Part shown: one piece after another, positions 3,979 through 15,982 of the stretch | Layout: the number at the start of each line of letters is the position of its first letter | How positions within the stretch are numbered: the first letter of the stretch is position 1 | Made by a program: the position numbers and the translations under genes | The notes under the pieces: generated by a model | Seen by the model: only the letters and a program-made list of their open reading frames with translations | Database searches by the model: none | What the model was told of the DNA's origin: nothing | Source: a virus | Taxonomy: Duplodnaviria > Heunggongvirae > Uroviricota > Caudoviricetes | Strand: one strand, 5' to 3' | DNA: 15,982 nucleotides | Virus record (IMG/VR): IMGVR_UViG_2737471818_000008

Positions 3979-4176
3979 ATGTCAAATACGCTTATTCGTT
4001 TAACAGAAGTTCAGCGTAGAACTGGATATAGCAAGGCATGGATTTATCGCCTTATGGGGCAAGGTAAATTTCCTGCATCAGTTAAAATTGGCTCGCGAGC
4101 TATTGCTTTCGTTGAGAGTGAAATTGACGAGTGGATTAATCAGCGTATTGCGGAATCACGCGGAACAGCTACCTGA
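3979..4176 (+). CDS. alpA: AlpA-family phage transcriptional regulator / excisionase-like DNA-binding protein
   Basis: 65-aa ORF with GAGG 7 nt upstream of the ATG. LIRLTEVQRRTGYSKAWIYRLMGQGKFPASVKIGSRAIAFVESEIDEWI is the characteristic AlpA/Vis-type winged-HTH sequence found after int in P4-like and PICI elements. Confidence 0.85.
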   Translation: MSNTLIRLTEVQRRTGYSKAWIYRLMGQGKFPASVKIGSRAIAFVESEIDEWINQRIAESRGTAT

Positions 4177-4253: not shown

Positions 4254-5054
4254 ATGAAATTTCCAAAAACGCCCGTACAGGGGCGGGGCTTCGTTCGGCC
4301 TGAAAACCAGAATCTGCAAAATTTCGGCGAAATTATCCCGATTATTTCCGGCGTTATTGGCGGGAGTGAAACCACTATTGTTAGCGCCAGAGCGTTACAT
4401 AAGGCGTTAGGTGTAGGGCGCGTTTTCCGTTCGTGGATCAAGGGGCGCATTGAAGAATACGGGTTCACGGAAGGCGTGGATTATGAGGTTGTTGAATATT
4501 TGAGCCGACCCGATCCGGTGAGCGCAAAATCTCGCCAGCAAACCGCTCTTGAGTACATCATCACAGTGAACATGGCGAAAGAACTGGCGATGGTAGAACG
4601 CACCGAACAGGGGCGCGCCGTTCGTCAGTACTTCATCAAATGCGAGGAAGAGCTACACAAGGTTGCGCCTGTACGTTCCGCAGCGTTACGCCGGGAACTG
4701 AAAGCCCGTATCACAGTTGCCAGCTACTTTAAGCCAATGTGTGCCGCGCTGGAGGCGTACCGGGCTGAACTGGGTAAAAACACTCTACAGCACCACTACA
4801 CCACGGAAGCCAATATGCTGGCGCGTATCGTGCTGGGTGGCATGACTGCAAAACAGTGGGCGCAGGCGAACGGCATCACAGGCGAACCACGCGACCACAT
4901 GAGCACGTTGCAGCTTGAGCACCTTTCTTACCTTGAGCAGAGCAATATCACGCTGATTGAGTTAGGCCAGGACTACCACCAGCGGAAAGCTGAATTAATT
5001 CGCCTTTCGCAGCGTTGGTTAGCCCGTCGCATGGAGGAAAACAGCCATGTGTAA
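4254..5054 (+). CDS. Phage antirepressor-like protein (AntA/ORF6N-type N-terminal domain)
   Basis: 266-aa ORF with CAGGAG upstream. The N-terminal stretch SARALHKALGVGRVFRSWIKGRIEEYGFTEGVDYEVV matches the pattern I associate with AntA/ORF6N antirepressor N-domains. The domain assignment is from memory and needs an HMM search. Confidence 0.6.
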   Translation: MKFPKTPVQGRGFVRPENQNLQNFGEIIPIISGVIGGSETTIVSARALHKALGVGRVFRSWIKGRIEEYGFTEGVDYEVVEYLSRPDPVSAKSRQQTALEYIITVNMAKELAMVERTEQGRAVRQYFIKCEEELHKVAPVRSAALRRELKARITVASYFKPMCAALEAYRAELGKNTLQHHYTTEANMLARIVLGGMTAKQWAQANGITGEPRDHMSTLQLEHLSYLEQSNITLIELGQDYHQRKAELIRLSQRWLARRMEENSHV

Positions 5055-6348
5055 CGCTCTGACCGTTACAAAAAGAGAAAGCGCCCCGTTGCCGGAGCGC
5101 CTTTGTGAACGAATAGCCTACTGCGCCATATTGCTTACTGTCTACGGGGCAGATTATAGCGTTGTGGTCGCACAGAGTGAAGGCGCTGATCACCGTTTCT
5201 ACAGCACGCCGGAAATGCAGAATATTTTGCTGCAAAATGCCGTTGGTCACGCCGTCCGGAAAGCAAAAAATTTTGCTGGTGGTGCGACCGATACGATTTT
5301 GTCAGGTCGCCAGGTGCTGATTAATCTGATGTCTGATTTCGTTCTGGATAAAACAAAGGCGACCGCAGAGGGCCGCCAGTGGGAAAGCTACATACTTGAA
5401 CGCATCGCCAACAATGCCAGATTTGCGGCTGGTGGACAATGTGTCAGCTTTGCACCAATGACTCTATGTTTAACTGAGGGTCATTATGGTGAATATGCTG
5501 GCTTGCTGGTGGGCTATTCCTGCTCTTTAACATTGCCATGCCGCGATGTTTTCCAGGTATGCGATCCCATTTTTGTGCGCCTGTACTCTTTAAGGAATTG
5601 CTCAAGGGCAAAAGCACATGGCGCGAATCTTTCTGATTCATGCTCTATCTTTCTGCGCCGTCTTTTCCGTGCCGGTGATGGTGTATTGGTTGATTCTTTG
5701 TTGGTCATGGCGCTGCCCTGTAAAACGATGCACCGTAGTTCCTCACACCACGGCGCTGGTGATGGTTACTCCTGTTCTTTGGCCTTGCGGCGCTGGCGGT
5801 ATTCAACTTCTCGCTTTAATGCTGCTGTTACAAACTGCCCTGTACTTTCACCAGGCATTTTTACCGCCTCAACATTGTTCATAACTTCATGCGGAACCCT
5901 TGCCGCAACTGTTTGTGATTTTGCGTTTACTGCTTTTGTCGCCATGTTGTGTACCCCTTACAAAAAACAAATGCAGTATGCAGGAAAAAAAATAAGTGTT
6001 CAACACTTGACGTGTTTAACACCTGGACTTAAATTGGTGTTCAACACCTTGTTGATGCAAGGTGCAGAAACGACAACGCCCCGCAGTGGTGGCACACATG
6101 CAGGACGTCTAACCACCAACGATAGCAAGAGTATCGAGGTAGCTATGAGAAATCATACCACACACCCGCAAGGGCGGGACTCGCACAACCTGAATAAATA
6201 CATCTGGCGTTTTATCGCCCTGAGCACGGCACAACCGCGCGTAATTCACATCGAGGCCACCAGCGAACAGGAAGCACGCCAGCAATCTCCTGATGGCTGC
6301 GTGATGGTATTCGCCGCCCGTATTCGCCAGGAGGTGGAACATGTGTAA
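5047..6348 (+). CDS. Hypothetical protein; only the 5' ~140 codons look coding. The 433-codon ORF is probably a chimeric read-through across an antisense gene, an intergenic operator region and a separate in-frame small gene
   Basis: Start ATG overlaps the stop of the upstream gene (ATGTGTAA). Codon usage over about 5047-5470 looks like normal coding sequence. Beyond that the translation becomes Cys/Ser/Thr-rich and crosses an operator/promoter cluster at 5996-6047. No in-frame stop exists before 6348. Confidence 0.25.
   Translation: MCNALTVTKRESAPLPERLCERIAYCAILLTVYGADYSVVVAQSEGADHRFYSTPEMQNILLQNAVGHAVRKAKNFAGGATDTILSGRQVLINLMSDFVLDKTKATAEGRQWESYILERIANNARFAAGGQCVSFAPMTLCLTEGHYGEYAGLLVGYSCSLTLPCRDVFQVCDPIFVRLYSLRNCSRAKAHGANLSDSCSIFLRRLFRAGDGVLVDSLLVMALPCKTMHRSSSHHGAGDGYSCSLALRRWRYSTSRFNAAVTNCPVLSPGIFTASTLFITSCGTLAATVCDFAFTAFVAMLCTPYKKQMQYAGKKISVQHLTCLTPGLKLVFNTLLMQGAETTTPRSGGTHAGRLTTNDSKSIEVAMRNHTTHPQGRDSHNLNKYIWRFIALSTAQPRVIHIEATSEQEARQQSPDGCVMVFAARIRQEVEHV
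5766..5945 (-). CDS. Small ribbon-helix-helix-like DNA-binding protein (59 aa), candidate repressor of the divergent promoter; not in the supplied ORF track because it is under 60 aa
   Basis: Hand-translated from the minus strand: MATKAVNAKSQTVAARVPHEVMNNVEAVKMPGESTGQFVTAALKREVEYRQRRKAKEQE. AAGGGG lies 8 nt upstream of the ATG. The pattern is strand (TVAARV), helix, loop, helix. Three palindromic operators lie immediately upstream. Confidence 0.4.
   Translation of the reverse strand: MATKAVNAKSQTVAARVPHEVMNNVEAVKMPGESTGQFVTAALKREVEYRQRRKAKEQE
5996..6047. promoter_or_regulatory. Divergent promoter/operator region: three GTGTT(C/T)AACAC palindromes overlapping a sigma70-like promoter
   Basis: Seen directly: GTGTTCAACAC (5996-6006), GTGTTTAACAC (6012-6022), GTGTTCAACAC (6037-6047). 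TTGACG (6007-6012), a 17-bp spacer, then TAAATT (6030-6035) forms a plus-strand promoter with operators flanking the -35 and overlapping the spacer and the region just downstream of the -10. Confidence 0.55.
6145..6348 (+). CDS. Small protein (67 aa), possibly Icd-like host cell-division inhibitor family; first gene of the rightward operon
   Basis: In-frame ATG at 6145 with GAGG 6 nt upstream, downstream of the operator/promoter cluster. MRNHTTHPQGRDSHNLNKYIWRFIALSTAQPRVIHIEATSEQEARQQSPDGCVMVFAARIRQEVEHV resembles my recollection of Icd-like small proteins in P4-like prophages. Unverified. Confidence 0.4.
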   Translation: MRNHTTHPQGRDSHNLNKYIWRFIALSTAQPRVIHIEATSEQEARQQSPDGCVMVFAARIRQEVEHV

Positions 6349-6565
6349 TGCAACATGGCCTGATGCAGCGGTAGACGCTATCAAAACGCTGATGGATTCA
6401 CTTATTGAGATTTCTGCTATCGCTGGTGTGGCGCATAAACACGCAGCCAGAGAATCAGAATGCATCTCCCATTATTTAGCATTTGTGCAGCTAAAAGCCG
6501 ATCAGGCACTGGATAAGGCCGGAAAAATTATCATGGCTGATGTGCAGGAGGTGCACCATGCATAA
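6341..6565 (+). CDS. Hypothetical small protein (74 aa)
   Basis: ORF with AGGAGG 9 nt upstream of the ATG. Start overlaps the preceding stop (ATGTGTAA); first of a chain of overlapping small genes. Confidence 0.55.
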   Translation: MCNATWPDAAVDAIKTLMDSLIEISAIAGVAHKHAARESECISHYLAFVQLKADQALDKAGKIIMADVQEVHHA

Positions 6566-6923
6566 CCTGTCAATTTCTGACCTTAACAGCATTCAGTTTG
6601 ACGAGAAATTTACCGGGCAGTTGCTGGTCAATGTGGAGAACGGGCGCATAGTGCGTAATTACCACCTGCCGGATGGTGCAATTGCCGGAAGCGTTGAAGC
6701 ATTGCTGGAACTGGCGGAACGTGCGCGACTGATTAAGCCGTCAACGAGCCATCACGATGATGATCTGCATTTTACCGGGCGTATGGTGAGTCACTACGAA
6801 AACGGCGTTGAAGTATCCCGCGAACGGCTGCGTGATGATTGCTGTTTCGGCACACTGCCGGAATTTATCGAGTTGCTGACCAGTTGCGGTTATCAGGTCA
6901 TTCAGGGGGGTAAACATGCGTGA
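6558..6923 (+). CDS. Hypothetical protein (121 aa)
   Basis: ATG at 6558 preceded by AGGAGG at about 8 nt (the ORF track's upstream ATG at 6540 has no RBS). Overlaps its neighbours in operon fashion. Confidence 0.6.
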   Translation: MHNLSISDLNSIQFDEKFTGQLLVNVENGRIVRNYHLPDGAIAGSVEALLELAERARLIKPSTSHHDDDLHFTGRMVSHYENGVEVSRERLRDDCCFGTLPEFIELLTSCGYQVIQGGKHA

Positions 6924-7149
6924 TGATCGTTTTAATTCCCTGAAACGGGAATTTGATGGCGCACCGGAAGATGCAGCGGGCGCATTGTTGAGCGTTGCTG
7001 ACATGATGAAAGCTGCATATTTTCTTATCAATACCAGTGGCTACAAGTCAGAGGGTGAAATGATTCTTAGTATTGCGTCGGACTATGCGGAATATGTGGC
7101 AGAGACGCGTTACAGAAGAAAATTCACGGAGGATGTAAGCCATGCATAA
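6916..7149 (+). CDS. Hypothetical small protein (77 aa)
   Basis: ORF whose start overlaps the upstream stop (ATGCGTGA); G-rich RBS upstream. Confidence 0.55.
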   Translation: MRDDRFNSLKREFDGAPEDAAGALLSVADMMKAAYFLINTSGYKSEGEMILSIASDYAEYVAETRYRRKFTEDVSHA

Positions 7150-7346: not shown

Positions 7347-7637
7347 ATGAAAAAGAAAAATTCTGGCTTTACTGCCAGCGGCCTCTCTCGGCCTGAAATC
7401 CGCCCCGGTGATATTTTCCGGGACACCAGACGCGGGGGACGGGTGGTTATTCGTCACGTTACGCCAGGCAATATCACCTACCGCCGTGAGGCTTACGAAT
7501 ATGACTGCGTAATGCCGCGCCGTCAGTTTGATCGTGATTTTATTCTGGTGGAAAACAAACAACAGGCAGTGGCGAGACGTGCAGCCACGAATATTAAAAA
7601 AATCCGGGCAATGTTGGTTGCGGGAGGTAAGAAGTGA
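7347..7637 (+). CDS. Hypothetical basic protein (96 aa)
   Basis: ORF immediately after the previous stop; its stop overlaps the primase GTG start (GTGA). Confidence 0.6.
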   Translation: MKKKNSGFTASGLSRPEIRPGDIFRDTRRGGRVVIRHVTPGNITYRREAYEYDCVMPRRQFDRDFILVENKQQAVARRAATNIKKIRAMLVAGGKK

Positions 7638-9439
7638 AAAACGCACCGAGTCTAAAATATCAGCCGAAGGATAAATTCACTGAGGTAATCATTTTTGCCG
7701 GGACGGATGCTTACGCCCATGCTCAACACTGGATTGAAAGTGAAGGACGAAAACACGGCGATAACGTGCCTCCTGTTTACCTGGGGCCAAAGCAACTGGC
7801 AGACCTGGCGAATATCCGCATTATTGACGAGAAACGCCGTTTTGCGCGTGTCTATATCGCGGGGGAGATAGAGCCAATCCAGATCAATACTATCGCTGAA
7901 AAGCTGGCGCTGGCTGGCGTACAGGAGGCGAAATTATACAAAGGTATCACCGACCAGGAACCGGAGAACTGGCGCGACTACCTGCAACGGATCCGCGAAC
8001 AGGCTGAGCACGGGGAAGTTTCAGTGATGAAATTAGCTACAAAAAATAGTGGTCTACCCAAGCCTGCATTAAATCAGATGGGAGCCAGCCAGAGAGGGGA
8101 GGTGTTACTTGAACATTATGGAGGAGCACTGGCGATAAATGATGATTCTGATGTAGTTCACCATTACAACGGAATTGTTTGGGAGCCTGTATCTGATAAA
8201 GAACTCCAGCGGTCTATGGCGAAGATTTTTATTGATGCCGAAATTAGTTATTCGCAAAACGCCATTAAATTTGCCGTAGAGACAATGAAATTGAGTCTAC
8301 CTGTTATGGGGGGAGCGGACAGAAATCTTATTGGGTTCAGTAACGGTGTTTTTGATATCAGGACAGGAAATTTTCGGGAACACAACAAAAATGACTGGTT
8401 GTTAAATGCCAGTGAATTACCGTTCAGCCCGCCAGAAGAGGGGGAAACGCTGGCAACACATGCGCCGAATTTCTGGAAGTGGTTGCGTCGTTCGGTGGCG
8501 GATAATGCTCGTAAAGCGGATCGCGTACTGGCGGCATTATTCATGGTACTGGCGAACCGGTACGACTGGCAGTTATTCCTTGAGGTAACGGGGCCGGGCG
8601 GAAGCGGTAAAAGTGTGATGGCGGAGATTTGTACCATGCTGGCGGGTAAGGCCAATACAGTATCGGCGAGCATGAAGGCGCTGGAAGACGCGAGGGAACG
8701 AGCGTTAGTGGTAGGATATTCTCTGATTATCATGCCTGACATGACCCGCTACGCAGGTGATGGTGCTGGGATTAAGGCCATTACAGGCGGTGACAAGGTG
8801 GCTATCGATCCGAAACACAAAGCGCCCTATTCCACGCGCGTTCCTGCGGTAGTGCTGGCAGTAAACAATAATGCCATGTCATTCAGCGACCGTAGTGGGG
8901 GGATCTCGCGTCGACGAGTGATATTTAATTTCTCTGAGGTTGTACCAGAGAACGAACGCGATCCGATGCTGGCGAAAAAGATAGAAGGGGAACTGGCCGT
9001 AGTGATTCGCCATTTGCTTACACGATTTGCCGACCAGGACGAAGCGAAAAGACTACTTTATGAGCAGCAAAAATCAGAAGAAGCACTGTTAATAAAGCGT
9101 GAAGGTGATTCGCTGGTGGACTTCTGCGGTTATCTGATGTCGTTGGTTAAATGTGAGGGGATGATAGTAGGTAATGCAGAAATAGTGCCATTTAGCCCGA
9201 GGCGATATCTGTATCATGCTTATTTGGCTTATATGTCTGCGCATGGTCTGGGAAAACCGGTATCACTGACACGCTTTGGTACAGATATGCCAGGGGCAAT
9301 GGCTGAGTACGGAAAGGAGTACAAGCGGGCTAAATGCACTAAAGGTCCAGATAAAGGGCGAACGATCACAAATGTTCTGTTAGATAAAGATGCTGATGGA
9401 TGGTTACCAGCAGCGGCAGGCATTAACGACAGAACATGA
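7634..9439 (+). CDS. Phage/plasmid primase, P4 family (primase-helicase with C-terminal NTPase domain)
   Basis: 601-aa ORF with GTG start and GGGAGG upstream. Walker A GPGGSGKS and a downstream Walker-B-like acidic motif; overall architecture typical of P4 alpha-like / PICI pri-rep proteins. An iteron array follows immediately. Confidence 0.88.
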   Translation: MKNAPSLKYQPKDKFTEVIIFAGTDAYAHAQHWIESEGRKHGDNVPPVYLGPKQLADLANIRIIDEKRRFARVYIAGEIEPIQINTIAEKLALAGVQEAKLYKGITDQEPENWRDYLQRIREQAEHGEVSVMKLATKNSGLPKPALNQMGASQRGEVLLEHYGGALAINDDSDVVHHYNGIVWEPVSDKELQRSMAKIFIDAEISYSQNAIKFAVETMKLSLPVMGGADRNLIGFSNGVFDIRTGNFREHNKNDWLLNASELPFSPPEEGETLATHAPNFWKWLRRSVADNARKADRVLAALFMVLANRYDWQLFLEVTGPGGSGKSVMAEICTMLAGKANTVSASMKALEDARERALVVGYSLIIMPDMTRYAGDGAGIKAITGGDKVAIDPKHKAPYSTRVPAVVLAVNNNAMSFSDRSGGISRRRVIFNFSEVVPENERDPMLAKKIEGELAVVIRHLLTRFADQDEAKRLLYEQQKSEEALLIKREGDSLVDFCGYLMSLVKCEGMIVGNAEIVPFSPRRYLYHAYLAYMSAHGLGKPVSLTRFGTDMPGAMAEYGKEYKRAKCTKGPDKGRTITNVLLDKDADGWLPAAAGINDRT

Positions 9440-9807: not shown

Positions 9808-10350
9808 ATGGGGCAAAGCATGACTAAGCTGACCATTAACAGAAAACCGAAAGGCATTTACGGCACGCCGCAGAAAACGACGCAGGCGGCACAGGAGCAG
9901 GATAAAACCACGTCGGCGCATAAAGTGATGCCCGGTAACCAGAAAGCGCAGCAGAAGCCCACAGGGGCGACACCGTGGCGGCATATGACCAAGCGCCAGC
10001 GCAAAAACCGCAGGCGCATTAACCGCCTCACTGAGTTGTGGCCTGAATTATTCAGCCGGGAAGCACCGAAGCCGCTTAAGGTGGGGATATTCGACGACCT
10101 GATGCAGGATCTCGCCGTCAGGGGGCTGGCATTCGGTCTAGGGGCATTGCGTGCGACGCTGGCATCTTATGCACAGTGTCCGCGCTATTACCGCGCCTTA
10201 ATGGCTGGTGGGGTACGCTACGACCTGAAAGGCCAGCCGTGCGGCGAGGTGACACCACAGGAACAACAGGACGCAGAAACGCGGCTGGTGGCGCTGAATG
10301 AGAAGCGCAAACGTCAGCGCCGGGTAGCAAAGGAGAAAACAGGCGCATGA
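9808..10350 (+). CDS. ProQ/FinO-domain RNA-binding protein (RNA chaperone family)
   Basis: The segment ELFSREAPKPLKVGIFDDLMQDL...YAQCPRYYRALMAGGVRYDLKGQPCGEVT aligns by eye with the E. coli ProQ N-terminal FinO-like domain (PLKIGIFQDL...RVDLDGNPCGEL). Basic, low-complexity N-terminus. The start may be ATG 9808 or ATG 9820. Confidence 0.8.
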   Translation: MGQSMTKLTINRKPKGIYGTPQKTTQAAQEQDKTTSAHKVMPGNQKAQQKPTGATPWRHMTKRQRKNRRRINRLTELWPELFSREAPKPLKVGIFDDLMQDLAVRGLAFGLGALRATLASYAQCPRYYRALMAGGVRYDLKGQPCGEVTPQEQQDAETRLVALNEKRKRQRRVAKEKTGA

Positions 10351-10634
10351 TTCACGACAGCAAAGCGGAAGCACTGGAAGCGCGTGGTCTGTACCGGAGA
10401 GCGGCGGCGCGGTGGGCTGAGGTCATCATGCTGGCGAATGATGACAAGGCACGGGAACAGGCGGCAAAACGTCGCGCGGAATGTATCCGCAAGGCAGCAC
10501 GCCCACCAGCAAGGCAGGATAATTTCGGGGAGATGCGCGAAACCATCAGCCGGGCACATGCCGGGATGGGATTACATCAGCCCAATGGTAAGGCATTCAG
10601 GAAATACCCTGGATCGAAAAATTGCAGTCAGTGA
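10347..10634 (+). CDS. Small regulatory protein, possibly a PerC-family transcriptional activator
   Basis: 95-aa ORF translationally coupled to the upstream gene (ATGA overlap). The N-terminal AEALEARGLYRRAAARWAEVI resembles the conserved N-terminus I recall for PerC-family proteins. Family assignment is from memory. Confidence 0.6.
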   Translation: MIHDSKAEALEARGLYRRAAARWAEVIMLANDDKAREQAAKRRAECIRKAARPPARQDNFGEMRETISRAHAGMGLHQPNGKAFRKYPGSKNCSQ

Positions 10635-10639
10635 CGGAG

Positions 10640-10663
10640 GCCGGGATTTTTCCCGGCTTTTTT
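10640..10663 (+). terminator. Rho-independent terminator after the ProQ/PerC-like gene pair
   Basis: GCCGGGA-TTTT-TCCCGGC forms a 7-bp GC-rich stem with a 4-nt loop, followed by TTTTTT; begins 6 nt after the stop codon. Confidence 0.75.
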
Positions 10664-10675
10664 GTGCCAGTAAAA

Positions 10676-10710
10676 AGCCCGCAGCCAGAAGTGTTGCGGG
10701 CTTTGTTTTT
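10676..10710. terminator. Second hairpin terminator, possibly bidirectional
   Basis: AGCCCGCA...TGCGGGCT forms an 8-bp stem, flanked by an A-run upstream and TTGTTTTT downstream. Confidence 0.55.
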
Positions 10711-10835
10711 CAGGTGATTGAAGTCAATGGGAAGAACGCGATCATCATGCGTTATTGTTTCATAAATTGCAATGATGTAGATCGTCATTTCAGTTTGTGC
10801 AATCATAACTATTGTTTTGTTCAGGAGATATGACT

Positions 10836-11009
10836 ATGAGAAAAGCCAGCGTGAAACCTGTTTTACTCGCTCGTGATCAGATTGAAGCATTACAGCGCAT
10901 CCAGGACGAGGAACGCCGCAATTCTCCGCTGGGGATTGCTCCGAGCATTCATGAGGTCGCCCGGCGTTTAATGCAGCGGGCGCTTTATCCCGTAGAACGT
11001 CCGGCCTGA
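10836..11009 (+). CDS. Hypothetical small protein (57 aa)
   Basis: ATG at 10836 with AGGAG 8 nt upstream (the ORF track's TTG at 10812 is less likely). Charged, helical composition. Confidence 0.5.
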   Translation: MRKASVKPVLLARDQIEALQRIQDEERRNSPLGIAPSIHEVARRLMQRALYPVERPA

Positions 11010-11048
11010 TGGTCGTGATTTTTTGGTGAAAAAAGAGAGGTGGTAAAA

Positions 11049-11627
11049 ATGCCAGCAAGCAAAGAAGATTTGCGATTAAAACTGATGGAGGTGGTTAACG
11101 CTCTGTCAGAGTCGCAGGGCAGCACTCCGCAGGAGATTATCGAAATTCTGAATGCGATCCCCGCACAGGATTTCATAAAAGAGGATAACGCTAATCAAAA
11201 CATCGTCGCGTCAGTCGAAGATGAATCCTCACTGGCAGAAGCCCAGGCTAAAGCAGATTCCGCATACAGCAATATGGGCCGTCGCGCTCCAGCCCCGTTT
11301 GCTGGTGAAAAGTCGATGGATTACCGCAAGCGTGCATTAATTGGTGCACAGAAGCTGGCTAAAAAATTCAGTGATGTGGATATTCGTTCCGTTTCAGATT
11401 CTGCAACGCTGGCGGTGCTGGAAGATCAGATTTACCAGGCTGCAAAAGACAGTGTTCAGTGGGCTGTGGAAAATACGCCGGGCTATTTGCGTAAAACCGT
11501 AAGAATGGATGAAGCCGGACGGCGGATTACTGAATATCAGGGGGATCCGAATAACTGGCTTAGTGCTTTCAAAATCCCTCCCCGTCGCCTGGTCAAAATT
11601 AACGTTGCAAGCCTCGCGGGGGCATGA
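11049..11627 (+). CDS. Hypothetical acidic protein (192 aa); candidate morphogenesis/packaging-interference protein
   Basis: ATG at 11049 with GAGAGG upstream (the ORF track start 11040 is probably too early). Normal coding composition. No similarity to P4 Psu, Delta or Sid recognised. Confidence 0.65.
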   Translation: MPASKEDLRLKLMEVVNALSESQGSTPQEIIEILNAIPAQDFIKEDNANQNIVASVEDESSLAEAQAKADSAYSNMGRRAPAPFAGEKSMDYRKRALIGAQKLAKKFSDVDIRSVSDSATLAVLEDQIYQAAKDSVQWAVENTPGYLRKTVRMDEAGRRITEYQGDPNNWLSAFKIPPRRLVKINVASLAGA

Positions 11628-11691
11628 AAAACGTGCTGAGTTCAGCCCTGCCGGATTTGGCGGGGCTTATTGCTTATAACCGGATAACATT

Positions 11692-12363
11692 ATGCTTTTA
11701 ACAGAAATTGAGGCGGCGAAGCAGATTCGGGACGGACAGCTACCGTCGCCTTATCAGTTTTCCAACATGTGGCTGGTTAACCTGCGTATCACAGGAACCG
11801 GAATGGCCTACCGCGCAGAAGAAAAAGAATTTGTCTGGCGTTCACCGCAAACTTATCTCAATCCGCAGTTCCTGGAACGTTGCGCCGGAGTACCCGTAAT
11901 TATCGACCATCCCGAAAGCAAAACCCTTGAAGACGTGGGCGAACGGTCGCGCATTATTGGCACCGTCATGTTGCCGTATATTCGCGGTGACGAGGTGTGG
12001 GGCGTATGCCGGATTTACGGGCAGGAAATCATCGATTACATCCAGAAAGCACGGGGGGAGGTATCCACCAGTCCGTCGGTTGTGTTTTGTGGTGCGTCCG
12101 GTGGGGCTGAAGTTCCTGATGTAATGGGCGAGGACAATTTTTTTATTGAGGGTACGCCATTTCTTATCGATCACGTTGCACTCGTACCGTTGGGCGTATG
12201 GGATAAGGATGGGAAACCATCGGGTGTGGAGGTAACAACGCCGACAGCAGAAGAGCAGCTTGCCGGAATGGTCCGGGACGTTATTGATGCGGCCTGCAAG
12301 CCAGCCCTGGAAAAACTGGAAGAAATATCCGGGCGGCTGGCTCAACTGGAAAAAGAAGGGTGA
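11692..12363 (+). CDS. Hypothetical protein (223 aa); weak prohead-protease-like motifs
   Basis: Clean ORF. Contains IIDHPES, FCGASGGAE and LIDHVAL, which could correspond to a His/Ser protease arrangement. Speculative. Confidence 0.65.
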   Translation: MLLTEIEAAKQIRDGQLPSPYQFSNMWLVNLRITGTGMAYRAEEKEFVWRSPQTYLNPQFLERCAGVPVIIDHPESKTLEDVGERSRIIGTVMLPYIRGDEVWGVCRIYGQEIIDYIQKARGEVSTSPSVVFCGASGGAEVPDVMGEDNFFIEGTPFLIDHVALVPLGVWDKDGKPSGVEVTTPTAEEQLAGMVRDVIDAACKPALEKLEEISGRLAQLEKEG

Positions 12364-12369
12364 GTCATA

Positions 12370-12897
12370 ATGCTGATGAGTAAGGCAGAATATGCCAAAC
12401 ACAAAGGCGTAAGCCGCCAGACAGTTTACGACTGGATCGAGAAAGGCGAAGTGGTCATGTCCGGTAAAAAAATCGATGTGGAAGCGACAGAGCAGCGGAA
12501 CAGCCCACCAGCACAGGGAAAAGACACAGTTTCTGAAATGTGGCCAGAGAGAACGCTGGAAATGACGTGGGGCGAGTTCTGGAAAGCAGTTAAGGCCAGA
12601 GACGGTAAAATTCCTGCGCCAGCAACGGACGAGGGCATACAGCAGCGTGTGCTGGATGCAGCCGGGGAATTAGGCTGGGAAGTGCACTTTCTTGATGATG
12701 GTGCTATCTGCCTTGAGGATTGCGACGGGCAGCATTACTTTGAACAATACAATTTGCGAGGTAATGCCAGGCTGGCAATTCGTATGCTGCGTTGCGAACT
12801 CTGCTATGTTGCAGGTGATTATGCCGATGAACTGGAATCATGGAGTGAAGCCGGGCTAAACGCCCTGGCTGAATGGGAAAAATCAGACCATCAATGA
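12370..12897 (+). CDS. HTH DNA-binding protein (175 aa); candidate small-terminase-like / packaging-redirection or regulatory protein
   Basis: The N-terminal SKAEYAKHKGVSRQTVYDWIEKGEV is a recognisable helix-turn-helix. The gene is followed immediately by a structured repeat array. Confidence 0.65.
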   Translation: MLMSKAEYAKHKGVSRQTVYDWIEKGEVVMSGKKIDVEATEQRNSPPAQGKDTVSEMWPERTLEMTWGEFWKAVKARDGKIPAPATDEGIQQRVLDAAGELGWEVHFLDDGAICLEDCDGQHYFEQYNLRGNARLAIRMLRCELCYVAGDYADELESWSEAGLNALAEWEKSDHQ

Positions 12898-12901
12898 CAT
12901 C

Positions 12902-13195
12902 AAAAAGTGTCAAGTTGAGCAGCTTGCCGGGTTGACACTTTACACTCTGAACGCGAAAAAGTGTCAACCTCGCTGTAAGCCCCGCCGTTACTGGCCTTGC
13001 GCCAGATTTACCACGTCAAAAAGCCGAAAAAATCGCGAAAAGTGTCAAGTTGACATGCTTAGAAATGCCAGGGATGGTTAAGTTTTGTTAAGGTTTTTCG
13101 TGAAAAAGTGTCAAGTGTGTCAACCTACGATATTAAGATTTATTAAGGTCTTAAGCCGGAAAGTGTCAACCAGCCCCTAAGATTTCCTAAGGTGT
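12902..13195. repeat. Two-motif repeat array: at least 6 copies of (A)AAGTGTCAA(C/G) interleaved with 3 copies of TAAG(A/T)TTT-NN-TAAGGT; candidate packaging (cos/pac) recognition or operator region
   Basis: Seen directly: GTGTCAAG (12907-12914) with inverted GTTGACAC (12931-12938); GTGTCAAC (12961-12968); palindrome GTGTCAAGTTGACA (13042-13055); tandem GTGTCAAG-TGTGTCAAC (13108-13124); GTGTCAAC (13163-13170). Interleaved TTAAGTTTTGTTAAGGT (13079-13095), TTAAGATTTATTAAGGT (13132-13148), CTAAGATTTCCTAAGGT (13177-13193). Confidence 0.6.
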
Positions 13196-13200
13196 AAATC

Positions 13201-13383
13201 ATGACCATCACCGAAGCCGATATGCTGGAGATGATCCGCAGCATTGCCGGAATCAAACAACCAGCAAGCAAAATTAACAGGTGTTCAGCGCCTGTTTCCG
13301 TTGTGCTGCAACAGGAATGCCACCAGCGGCGGGAAAACGAAAAGGCGTACCAATGGACGAAGCCAAACAAGTTACGGCGTTAA
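13201..13383 (+). CDS. Hypothetical small protein (60 aa)
   Basis: ATG with AAGGTG 7 nt upstream, directly after the repeat array; followed by a hairpin. Confidence 0.4.
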   Translation: MTITEADMLEMIRSIAGIKQPASKINRCSAPVSVVLQQECHQRRENEKAYQWTKPNKLRR

Positions 13384-13392
13384 TTAGGAATA

Positions 13393-13415
13393 CGGGCTGA
13401 GATAGCCCGCATTTT
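13393..13415. terminator. Short hairpin between convergent genes (weak, possibly bidirectional terminator)
   Basis: CGGGCT-GAGAT-AGCCCG forms a 6-bp stem, followed by CATTTTG; sits in the 34-bp gap between the plus ORF ending at 13383 and the minus ORF ending at 13418. Confidence 0.35.
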
Positions 13416-13417
13416 GC

Positions 13418-13675
13418 TCACAGCTTGTTATACATTTTTCCAGCGAAGTCATGAACCGCCTGAGGAATATCCGACGGCGTACCTAGCATTGTTGGCGCAT
13501 CGGAAACAAAGAACATGATCGCTTCTTTGATTTCTTCGAAAGATGGGGTAGGGGTAATGCGCTTGAGATTTGAAACCGCCCGTAGGAACTCCGCCGTATC
13601 CATTGGATGCCTGCTAAACCACGTTGGACGAGAAGCCCAACATTTTACTGCTTCTTTCACCTTAGTGTTCATCAT
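13418..13675 (-). CDS. Hypothetical protein (85 aa), minus strand
   Basis: ORF with AAGGA 5 nt upstream of its ATG on the minus strand; convergent with the 13201-13383 gene. No family recognised. Confidence 0.3.
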   Translation of the reverse strand: MMNTKVKEAVKCWASRPTWFSRHPMDTAEFLRAVSNLKRITPTPSFEEIKEAIMFFVSDAPTMLGTPSDIPQAVHDFAGKMYNKL

Positions 13676-14233
13676 TTTTCCTTTTGCTTATTACCATACA
13701 AAGCATGTGGAAAGAGAAGATTAACATGGAAAATATGGAGTTGGTGAGCAAATGAAAGGTACTGGTAGCCTGTCGACATCTATCAGCATGATGATGTGAG
13801 ACCGTATCAGTGGCGGAAACCGAACAGGCTGCGACGGTGAGCGGAGCGTTACGGTAAGCCAACAGCCAAGCCAAACATTAAGTCTACAGGTAAGGTTGTT
13901 TTTTTGCAGGTGGCATTAATTTGTATGTTGGTTTGAGGAGCATTTTTACTGAGACTGCCTGTTCTGGTTAGTTTTTTCGTATGATATACACCTCATCAAA
14001 ATTGTCCGACAGTGTGGAGCGGCGTGGCGGGGAGAGTATTGTGTGCTAGAGATTATAGTTACACTTTAATCTACGACACGATCGTAATTTTTCACTCTTC
14101 TTTTCAGATAAGCTACTACTGAGTTCACAAAAATAACATTATTTTATATCCATGTGTTATCTTTATCTGATATTAATGTGCTGTTCGGTCTTTTTTTGAC
14201 TGCAAACGGCATTAATCATATTAAGGAAACCAA

Positions 14234-15982
14234 GTGAAAATATCTTTTTTTGGCGTAAATAACTTTAGGACAATATCAGGTGGCATTGGTAATAATAGAA
14301 TAATATTTAAAGATAGCAATACGCTTTTCATTTACGGGGCAAACAATGCTGGAAAATCAACTTATTTAAAAGCATATATGTTTTTTTACAGTAATGAAAA
14401 ACCTATCATTGATGATTTCTTTAAACGAGACGACAATAATTCTATTGAGTTTGAATTAGAAGTTCAACTTGATGACTTGGATAAAGAAAGAATAGAAGCC
14501 AAAGCACCGAAGCAAAAGGAAAGTTATAAGAAGTATTTAAATAATGATTTTATTAGAATTAAGAAAGTATGGAGTAAAAATGGAACAAGAATAGAGGATA
14601 AAAATTATACTTATGATTATAGTAAAGGAGATAGCGGCGAGTATGATGAAGTTGGATATGCAACGATTGGTTTGCATCAGGTCTTCCAATCTTGTTTGCC
14701 AAAACCTGTATTTATAAAGGCTATGCCAACAGAGGAAGAAGCTAAGAAGATTCTTAATGAAATCCTAAAGATGATGGCTGAAAATACACTTAAAACATCT
14801 GATCTTGATGAATTAAAAGCAGCTCAGAATAAAATAAAAGAATTACAAGACAAAATGTATGATCCAGAATTGATTGAGACCTATCAGAATTCAGTTAACG
14901 GATACTTTAACAAGATATTCGGTGATACTGCTATATGCTTCAAAGATCAAAAAGATAGGGTTGTTTGGACGGAGAATAAGCTTGGCAGAGATTTTGAAAT
15001 TGAGTTTATGAAAAAAAATAGCCAAGGGGAGTTTGATGGCAATATCCCTTCAAGTTATAGCAGTGTAGGTCATGGAACTATTAGGACTGCAATATTTACA
15101 TTATTATTGATGAGAGATGTAGCAGAGCGTTTTGAAAGAAGGCTTGGACGTAAGGATTACATGGTTCTGTTTGAGGAGCCTGAGCTATTTCTCTATCCTA
15201 GAATGGTGAAGGAACTTCGTGAATTGATTTATCAGGTGAGCACTGAAGACCTTCCATATCAAGTACTTTGTGCCTCACATTCATCTTCCATGATAGATCT
15301 TTCAAAGCCTAAATCTTCGATAATACGATTAGTTAATAATTCTACTGGAACTAAATCATATCAAATTAATGATCAATTTTTGAAGGATGCAAAAGGCATT
15401 GCTACAAATGCTGAACTTAAACAAGAAATGTATGAAGTTTTGAGGTTTAACCCTTATATTTGTGAATCATTCTACGCTGATGAGGTGCTTCTGATTGAGG
15501 GGCCAACAGAAGAAATAATATGTAGAGCTTTTTTACAAGAAACCCCATCAGATAAATCTATATTCGTATTGAACTGTGGTACGGTTAATAACATTCCTTT
15601 TTATCAAAAAATCTTCTCAAGGTTTAATATAAAATATCATGTGATCTGTGATACAGATAAAGCAGAAATAGTTACCGTAGATCAATCTGGCAATGCAGAT
15701 TTTGATTCTGGAATACAGAAAACAATTTCAGAACAGTATAGGAATGATTGTACTGCAATGAATGGTAATATAGGACTACTTCGAACTCATAACATTACAT
15801 TTGAACCTGCTCATCAGGATGTTAGTATTCCTGACTTTTTGAGATTTGTTGATTGCGGTGATAGAAGCAAACCATTTAATGCAAACTTGTACTGGAAGGA
15901 TATTTTAAGGCCAAATATATCACATCAAGATATAAATAAAGTGCCTATAATTAAGTATTTGAATGAAATAATAGCACATTAA
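14234..15982 (+). CDS. OLD-family ATP-dependent nuclease (N-terminal ABC-type ATPase plus C-terminal TOPRIM domain); class 1 OLD or Gabija GajA-like; candidate anti-phage defence protein
   Basis: 582-aa ORF with GTG start and AAGGAAA upstream, in strongly AT-rich DNA. Motifs read directly: Walker A GANNAGKST (near 14336-14362), Walker B MVLFEEPELF (near 15161-15190), H-loop-like ASHS, TOPRIM glutamate LLIEGPTEE (near 15491-15517) and DxD ICDTDK (near 15644-15661). Size matches P2 Old and GajA. Confidence 0.85.
   Translation: MKISFFGVNNFRTISGGIGNNRIIFKDSNTLFIYGANNAGKSTYLKAYMFFYSNEKPIIDDFFKRDDNNSIEFELEVQLDDLDKERIEAKAPKQKESYKKYLNNDFIRIKKVWSKNGTRIEDKNYTYDYSKGDSGEYDEVGYATIGLHQVFQSCLPKPVFIKAMPTEEEAKKILNEILKMMAENTLKTSDLDELKAAQNKIKELQDKMYDPELIETYQNSVNGYFNKIFGDTAICFKDQKDRVVWTENKLGRDFEIEFMKKNSQGEFDGNIPSSYSSVGHGTIRTAIFTLLLMRDVAERFERRLGRKDYMVLFEEPELFLYPRMVKELRELIYQVSTEDLPYQVLCASHSSSMIDLSKPKSSIIRLVNNSTGTKSYQINDQFLKDAKGIATNAELKQEMYEVLRFNPYICESFYADEVLLIEGPTEEIICRAFLQETPSDKSIFVLNCGTVNNIPFYQKIFSRFNIKYHVICDTDKAEIVTVDQSGNADFDSGIQKTISEQYRNDCTAMNGNIGLLRTHNITFEPAHQDVSIPDFLRFVDCGDRSKPFNANLYWKDILRPNISHQDINKVPIIKYLNEIIAH

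Follow-up and report, generated by a model that had tools for sequence, protein, structure and literature searches.

In the satellite P4, the small gene kil is reportedly the terminal part of a longer gene, eta, which is said to begin upstream of a constitutive promoter, and nonsense codons in eta are said to cause premature termination of the transcripts that come from an upstream promoter. A related arrangement is reported for the immI region of P1 and P7, where c4 RNA, icd and ant follow one another and where, in P1, the translation of icd is said to keep transcription from terminating prematurely. Concerning P4, the portion of PMC10111431 that relates the work of Forti et al. (1999, J Bacteriol 181:5225) places a promoter inside eta, describes eta as translationally coupled to the alpA homologue (vis), and states that translation of Eta prevents transcription termination and that eta nonsense mutations act through polarity, relieved by suppression. 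Among the phage-inducible chromosomal islands (PICIs) of Gram-negative bacteria, EcCICFT073 of Escherichia coli CFT073 has an AlpA protein that activates the genes downstream of alpA and drives replication (Fillol-Salom et al., 2018, PMC6092414); the same article mentions neither a long frame nor a YlcI/YnfO gene nor operators in this island, and its global repressor is given as “unclear”. Here we describe a PICI/P4-like satellite within a stretch of 15,982 nucleotides (IMG/VR record IMGVR_UViG_2737471818_000008; the whole stretch is called the window), in which a plus-strand open reading frame (ORF) of 433 codons, identified in the ORF listing at 5047-6348, begins on the stop codon of an antirepressor gene (ant), passes antisense through two minus-strand genes and across a control region, and ends as a small Icd-like gene, the homologue of P4 Kil. 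The openness of this pass-through (eta-like) frame is, with high confidence, a selected and conserved feature, and no description of such a long frame for PICIs was found in the searchable literature.

The start of the long ORF is closely tied to the gene in front of it. Direct reading of the sequence shows that its ATG (5047-5049) overlaps the stop codon of ant (TAA, 5052-5054) in the plus-strand junction ATGTGTAA, with GGAGG at 5033-5037, 9 nt upstream of the ATG, and the position of the ATG at -7 relative to the ant stop is common to all ant-type relatives. At the other end, the last 67 codons constitute the nested Icd-like gene (6145-6348, plus strand; NF033153, E-value 3.8e-20), which has its own ATG at 6145 and its own Shine-Dalgarno (SD) sequence, GAGG, at 6136-6139, and whose stop is overlapped by 8 nt, again in ATGTGTAA, by the next gene of the rightward (replication) operon (6341-6565, plus strand). 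About 18 stops are expected by chance in the 375 codons upstream of the nested start, and the other two plus-strand frames contain 15 and 21 over the same codons; the Icd-like gene is preceded by 374 open codons, vs 1-21 for the other 15 genes of the window. The original prediction, made by a model from the letters alone, had already pointed to a 433-codon ORF without any stop, coupled to the antirepressor-like gene, ordinary in the codon usage of its first ~140 codons, and then running through antisense sequence and an operator cluster into a separate small gene in the same frame with its own ribosome-binding site; all these elements of the anatomy are confirmed. As an observation apart, the overlapping stop/start CATGTGTAA is identical at 5047-5054 (ant/long ORF) and at 6341-6348 (Icd-like gene/next gene), and both ORFs downstream of it begin with MCNA, so this element may be a short conserved linker for module exchange.

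From about 5514 onward, the frame runs antisense to two minus-strand genes. The first encodes 64 amino acids (aa), belongs to the phrog_21027 family (5514-5708; E-value 4.6e-29) and is the second gene of a leftward operon; the other is a YlcI/YnfO-family gene (5766-5945), annotated by the Prokaryotic Genome Annotation Pipeline (PGAP) and matching NF041551 with an E-value of 2e-16 and 59.7 bits, against a cut-off of 30. A terminator- or attenuator-like hairpin lies between them on the minus strand (5730-5756; folding free energy dG -17.5, z -2.5). The third codon positions of both genes coincide with those of the plus frame; over this antisense stretch, the codon log-odds turn negative in the plus frame and positive in the minus frames, and over 5475-6000 the plus strand is T-rich and has more C than G, as expected for the antisense of coding DNA. 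When the YlcI/YnfO-type family profile was compared with the PDB, the best match was the Arc repressor of P22, at a weak E-value of 0.054, followed by CopG at 0.57. Judged from these profile matches, the product is probably an Arc-like ribbon-helix-helix (RHH) repressor, and it may be the master repressor that is “missing” in Gram-negative PICIs. The long ORF then crosses a divergent control region (5946-6144), recognised by putative operators and a promoter-like site: three GTGTTNAACAC palindromes (5996-6006, 6012-6022 and 6037-6047), where 0.38 would be expected by chance, flank and overlap a rightward match to the promoter consensus, TTGACG-17-TAAATT, at 6007-6035. The YlcI/YnfO gene faces the operator triplet in the window; the triplet occurs in only 16 of 91 related architectures, which suggests several immunity specificities.

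In P4 (X51522), the corresponding ORF has 214 codons and lies on the minus strand (8812-8168). It begins with MMM on the stop codon of vis (ORF88), finishes together with the 65-aa Kil and shares 8 nt with the next gene (epsilon over kil). Since NF033153 matches aa 161-208 of P4 Eta (E-value 1.4e-20), Kil is an Icd-like protein; a tblastn search of the phage collection with the Icd-like protein of the window gave one match, and P4 was not found at that sensitivity. In both systems, the nested C-terminal gene is homologous, the long ORF starts on the stop codon of the preceding gene (vis in P4; ant or alpA in the islands), the following gene is overlapped by 8 nt, and the primase operon lies downstream. 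P4 also has a promoter within eta, ahead of kil, and the window has a promoter-like consensus match at the corresponding place. On the other hand, the frame of the window has 433 codons vs about 199 in P4 eta, and it is antisense to a two-gene protein-repressor operon with terminators, which P4 lacks. Immunity would probably be protein-based, through the operators and the Arc-like repressor, whereas that of P4 is RNA-based, and the window has no CI RNA or seqA/B/C. In P1 and P7, a small cell-division inhibitor of the Icd family also adjoins an antirepressor gene, although in reversed order (ant is upstream in the window), and P1 has no long read-through ORF; a c4-type RNA was not detected in the window.

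The comparison with EcCICFT073 is closer. Both islands have the order int, alpA, (ant), the two minus-strand genes, Icd-like, DUF4222 and primase, and EcCICFT073 also contains an open frame of 433 codons in the same phase, with 0 stops vs 19 and 28 in the other frames. It differs in that its frame begins 53 nt past the alpA stop with a remnant of the Ant N-terminus, not on an ant stop: at 5752-7053 of this locus, about 80 residues resembling the N-terminus of Ant are fused in frame to the segment KSAPLPERLCE (see below), so the deletion of ant kept the frame open.

About 160 further loci were collected via the Icd-like protein, and their 151 complete regions were grouped into 91 clusters at 95% identity. 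In roughly 84 of the 91, the stop-to-stop frame ending at the Icd-like stop comprises 200-653 codons, while the two control frames (f1 and f2) of the surveyed regions accumulate 1504 and 1649 stops in 25,381 codons (~6%). The sequence between ant and the Icd-like gene differs among E. coli relatives, with the frame kept. Counted from the first start, the ORF has 435, 597 and 382 codons in loci L002, L003 and L005, and the stop-to-stop open frames of L007 and L009 have 342 and 255; open frames of 348 and 344 codons are present in Klebsiella (L012) and E. ruysiae (L010), respectively. Open homologues of full length include relatives of 441-443 codons and EcCICFT073. Such homologues, conserved over their entire length, had been set by the original prediction against its own view of the ORF as a chimera: openness and length are indeed conserved, and amino-acid conservation over the whole length was not seen. 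In 49 of the 50 clusters with an identifiable upstream gene, the frame is already open at the alpA/ant stop or becomes so no more than 60 nt beyond it; typical starts are an ATG over the ant stop, an ATG 11 nt past the alpA stop, and a GTG at +5 or an ATG at +20. The nested ATG and its SD sequence are conserved in 88 of the 91 clusters.

The phase of the genes inside the frame is conserved as well. In the cluster representatives, 98 matches to the YlcI/YnfO-type (RHH) gene and 58 to the second gene all lie inside the open frame and in the phase in which third positions coincide; about 15 minus-strand gene matches, from six loci, are outside the open frame or this phase. The spacer from the RHH start to the nested ATG has 16 distinct lengths, 13 of which are congruent modulo 3 (binomial P 1.2e-4), and the three exceptions (L155, L044 and L004) are loci in which the single frame is broken. 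Broken loci, that of Edwardsiella (L011) included, still have a plus-strand ORF of 193-396 codons that spans the antisense genes and ends within ~40 nt of the Icd ORF or overlaps it. Resampling of synonymous codons in the minus-strand genes gave a per-gene probability of openness of 0.05-0.8; the joint probability is not a valid test because the ORFs were picked from inside open frames, and the unconditioned phase counts given above were used in its place. Separately, L004 (2501-4080) and L008 (2488-3095) have a P4-type Phage_ASH leader before the Icd-like gene, and in both the frame is split into two overlapping ORFs. Since L004 possesses both this leader and an Arc-like repressor gene, a single island may combine immunity modules of the RNA type and of the protein type.

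Substitutions were tallied as minimum counts at plus-frame codon positions 1/2/3, and the ratio of non-synonymous to synonymous changes (pN/pS) was calculated in the ORF frame (f0), with f1 and f2 as controls. The Icd-like gene (6145-6348) has counts of 24/29/50 and a pN/pS of 0.26 in f0 (2.18 and 1.13 in f1 and f2). The corresponding values antisense to the 64-aa gene (5514-5708) are 10/11/25 and 0.49 (vs 0.88 and 1.06), and those antisense to the YlcI/YnfO gene (5766-5945) are 30/42/85 and 0.41 (vs 1.33 and 0.77); in these two segments, pN/pS is lower in the minus frame than in f0 (0.43 and 0.32, respectively), and the mean BLOSUM62 score of the replacements is +0.25 and -0.02 in the minus frame vs -0.97 and -1.05 in the plus frame. 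From the pN/pS of the segments and this replacement pattern it follows that protein-level constraint is located in the minus-strand genes and the Icd-like gene only. The 5' part gave 37/37/44 and 0.67 (f1, f2: 0.76, 0.83) for 5047-5347, and 9/14/15 and 0.70 for 5348-5513 (f1, f2: 1.99, with 6 pairs only, and 0.71); no codon-periodic substitution with a pN/pS well below the controls was found for residues 1-155. The control region (5946-6144; 17/20/23, 0.69 vs 0.73 and 0.83) lacks codon periodicity too, yet it is free of stops. In sum, ~220 codons of the long frame (5047-5513 and 5946-6144) are near-neutral yet stop-free. Observed variants, placed on the background of the window, create 6 stops in f0 vs 23 and 20 in f1 and f2 (segments A-D), counts that are small and include some variants from broken loci. 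The plus frame appears to be selected for openness alone. As in antisense dual-coding genes, two strands are open over ~430 nt with coinciding third codon positions, the least constraining phase; the difference is that here only the minus-strand products are under protein-level constraint.

The 5' segment (5047-5513) requires separate consideration. Its first ~155 codons are coding-like in the ORF frame, with GC contents of 0.57/0.42/0.51 at the three codon positions and codon log-odds of +0.16/+0.22, the best of the six frames (0.17-0.33 for the real genes of the window). Nonetheless, the original prediction of a real gene in this segment is not supported: besides the absence of codon-level constraint, residues 1-156 have no match in Pfam, NCBIfam or PHROG, and a database of 5.8 billion proteins returned only 44 matches, all from Escherichia and of 87-263 aa, every one of them a piece of the same long ORFs, many being partial or named “Icd-like”. 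No family with a defined end emerged from these four sources for residues 1-155. One of the 44 (P0004) is a deletion variant in which the 5' segment is joined in frame to the Icd-like part; deletion and mosaic variants such as this one stay in frame.

The 5' segment is largely made of opposite-strand signals. Terminator scanning and folding reveal a strong intrinsic terminator on the minus strand at 5068-5103, with an 11-bp stem (5103-5078) followed by CTCTTTTTGT and a T-run to 5068; the plus-strand stem is weaker. This block, conserved in many E. coli genomes, is what the plus frame translates as KSAPLPERLCE. Further along, a conserved block of ~100 nt (5348-5447, minus strand) contains a terminator hairpin (5377-5358) with its T-run, shows ~82% identity in hundreds of E. 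coli genomes, and lies directly 3' of alpA in islands without ant. Because the variants of its stem are G-U pairs, valid on the minus strand only, this block is the 3' end of the leftward operon and no protein domain. A P4 CI-like RNA was also considered for 5348-5447 and ruled out in favour of the minus-strand terminator and 3' block. The same ~100 nt occur at 2501-2601 of L007 and at 2501-2601 of L009, often unannotated or inside “BRO-N”, “ash” or “Icd-like” calls, and might yield a small RNA derived from the 3' untranslated region. A promoter-like site on the minus strand (TTCACT-17-TATAAT, 5181-5153) precedes the first terminator and delimits with it a candidate antisense small RNA of ~80 nt (5068-5181), which would pair with codons ~8-33 of the long ORF, just past the ant stop; the promoter hexamers are kept (TTCACA/TAAAAT) in a variant only 78% identical between them.

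By analogy with P4, we favour with modest confidence the reading of ORF433 as the PICI/P4-like counterpart of the nested eta/kil genes, whose translation would shield read-through transcripts; translation-dependent anti-termination as the mechanism is, on the same analogy, an evenly balanced proposition. While the island is quiescent, the internal rightward promoter would be kept shut by the Arc-like protein that the leftward operon encodes. Activation of the alpA-ant operon would bring ribosomes onto the pass-through frame by coupling from ant, and they would translate it past the two minus-strand terminators, the leftward operon and the operator/promoter region, to its end as the Icd-like gene. 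With ribosomes continuing along the read-through transcript, Rho would have no access to its pyrimidine-rich antisense stretch, which would otherwise stay untranslated, and according to this proposal could not terminate it. The Icd-like/primase operon would in this way be transcribed without use of the repressed promoter inside the frame, and the incoming transcription would also collide with that of the repressor and probably interfere with its expression. This shielding model predicts selection for a frame that is open and locked in phase, with no constraint on its amino acids.

Several considerations weigh against the shielding model. The translation of the frame and its effect on termination are both features that we infer from P4, and the resemblance to P4 has its limits: the N-terminal 380 residues of the window ORF share nothing with P4 Eta; Phage_ASH (PF10554) matches P4 Eta, L004 and L008, not the window ORF; and no RNA of the CI, C4 or isrK type was found with Rfam over 4900-6500, either at the gathering threshold or at E<=10, where only chance-level matches appeared. 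The gene-like codon composition of the 5' segment could be the relic of a real gene and not a sign of translation. Concerning the survey, the loci were gathered via an Icd-like gene at least 90% identical to that of the window, so the breadth beyond this Icd type is sampled only by P4, L004, L008 and L011, and the 91 clusters, being linked by descent and recombination, are not fully independent. Finally, shielding from Rho needs only continuous cover by ORFs, yet the in-frame fusion to Icd is the rule, and the fusion protein could therefore matter.

This last point leads to the main rival, in which the product of the long ORF is itself functional, as a Kil/Icd-like isoform with an N-terminal extension (an “Eta” protein). 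The extension would be required as polypeptide, for instance to mask, localise or destabilise the toxic Kil domain, with little demand on its sequence. The preference for in-frame fusion, kept in ~92% of the clusters, over bare ORF adjacency, which would suffice for shielding and is rare, favours this rival somewhat; the gene-like codon composition of the 5' 155 codons agrees with it, and databases contain “Icd-like” proteins of 224-262 aa of this type. Against it, no amino-acid constraint is found outside the Icd-like part, and the extension, mosaic and of ~130 to 590 residues, consists mostly of sequence opposite to other genes and shows radical replacements. It matches no family or domain; an AlphaFold2 model from the single sequence is uninformative, as its predicted local distance difference test (pLDDT) score is 32.6 throughout, the Icd-like part included. 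Furthermore, in what PMC10111431 relates of P4, the nonsense mutations in eta act via polarity and are relieved by suppression. We consider an extended Kil unlikely, and sequence data alone do not separate it from shielding.

The original prediction itself treated the 5' ~140 codons as a genuine gene, truncated on its 3' side at a recombination junction, and on this view the remainder is open by accident. The coding-like composition of 5047-5513, the strongly mosaic character of the region and the presence of the ATGTGTAA junction at two module boundaries (5047 and 6341) fit such a truncation, and the description of a composite ORF in a region that is mosaic between elements stands. The accidental remnant is not supported: no relative has a homologue ending near 5470-5500, where a stop had been anticipated; residues 1-156 have no independent protein family, and substitution in the 5' segment is near-neutral and non-periodic in a stretch that consists largely of two minus-strand terminators and the conserved 3' block. 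Instead of the ~18 stops expected, openness recurs in ~84 of 91 architectures, with phase-preserving spacers. This explanation is largely refuted, and we rate it as very improbable. The idea of a shadow ORF, open only because of the codons that the minus-strand genes use, is hardly credible, despite the resampling probabilities of 0.05-0.8 per gene given the protein sequences. Of the 366 upstream codons, ~220 (5047-5513 and 5946-6144) have no gene opposite them and are still stop-free; minus-strand genes, spacer and Icd-like gene keep their relative phase, and the start of the frame coincides exactly with the stop of the gene before it.

As for its surroundings, the window contains a satellite-type island that adjoins tRNA-Thr(CGU) at 1369-1444, and the corresponding sequence of E. 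coli EC11 (NZ_CP027255.1) is identical to it. PGAP annotates int (1611-2825), a gene for an AlpA-like helix-turn-helix protein (3979-4176) and the antA/AntB antirepressor gene (4254-5054, plus strand; Pfam AntA, E-value 2.4e-23). The Icd-like gene is followed by several small genes, DUF4222, primase and late genes, in that order, the primase being of the P4-alpha type (7634-9439). With int, alpA and primase ordered from the attachment site and the regulatory region as in Gram-negative PICIs, the element is a thrW-integrated PICI/P4-like satellite. An int-alpA RNA (Rfam RF02996, 45.5 bits) lies at 2870-2937, between int and the next gene. Downstream of the primase, 9808-15982 contains ProQ/FinO-like and PerC-like genes, a DUF2213 protein and a long AT-rich ORF from 14234 to the end of the window (GC content at third positions 0.25), which suggests a late region like that of capsid-forming PICIs together with a foreign cargo gene.

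The annotation of the long frame is uneven. PGAP makes no gene call for ORF 5047-6348; in EC11, it places a pseudogene in the same frame at 5329-5764 (“hypothetical, missing C-terminus”), together with the YlcI/YnfO gene at 5766-5945 (minus strand) and the Icd-like gene at 6145-6348, and in strain N1420 (98.6% identical) it calls a 66-aa counterpart of the minus-strand ORF 5514-5708 and a 134-aa Icd-like protein. Calls in this frame also vary in position (5329-5764 in the window, 2751-3155 in L002, 2494-2839 in L007) and in label, from the “hypothetical, missing C-terminus” pseudogene to a 134-aa Icd-like protein or an “Icd-like, missing C-terminus” pseudogene, and the minus-strand 64-aa gene is called in some genomes and absent from the annotation of others. 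A conserved frame accounts for this patchwork of pseudogenes, Icd-like proteins of 134 or 67 aa and omitted minus-strand genes. In this sense, it serves as a warning that a stop-free passage through antisense and intergenic DNA need not be an artefact.

A wider proposal, which we put forward tentatively and hold at somewhat less than even weight, is that a satellite family, EcCICFT073 included, keeps a ribosome bridge of several hundred codons, selected only for openness and phase, which would carry AlpA-activated transcription, antisense, over the hitherto undescribed Arc-like master-repressor operon and the operators into the replication operon, both overriding and silencing the repressor. 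If true, it would be a clear natural case of a long ORF maintained for the act of translation and not for its product, while overlapping real genes of the opposite strand in a fixed phase. Published work leaves unclear both the repressor of Gram-negative PICIs and the route by which their replication genes are reached; the ribosome bridge would explain their induction by AlpA as well as their missing repressor, and it gives a testable model for the induction of these islands.

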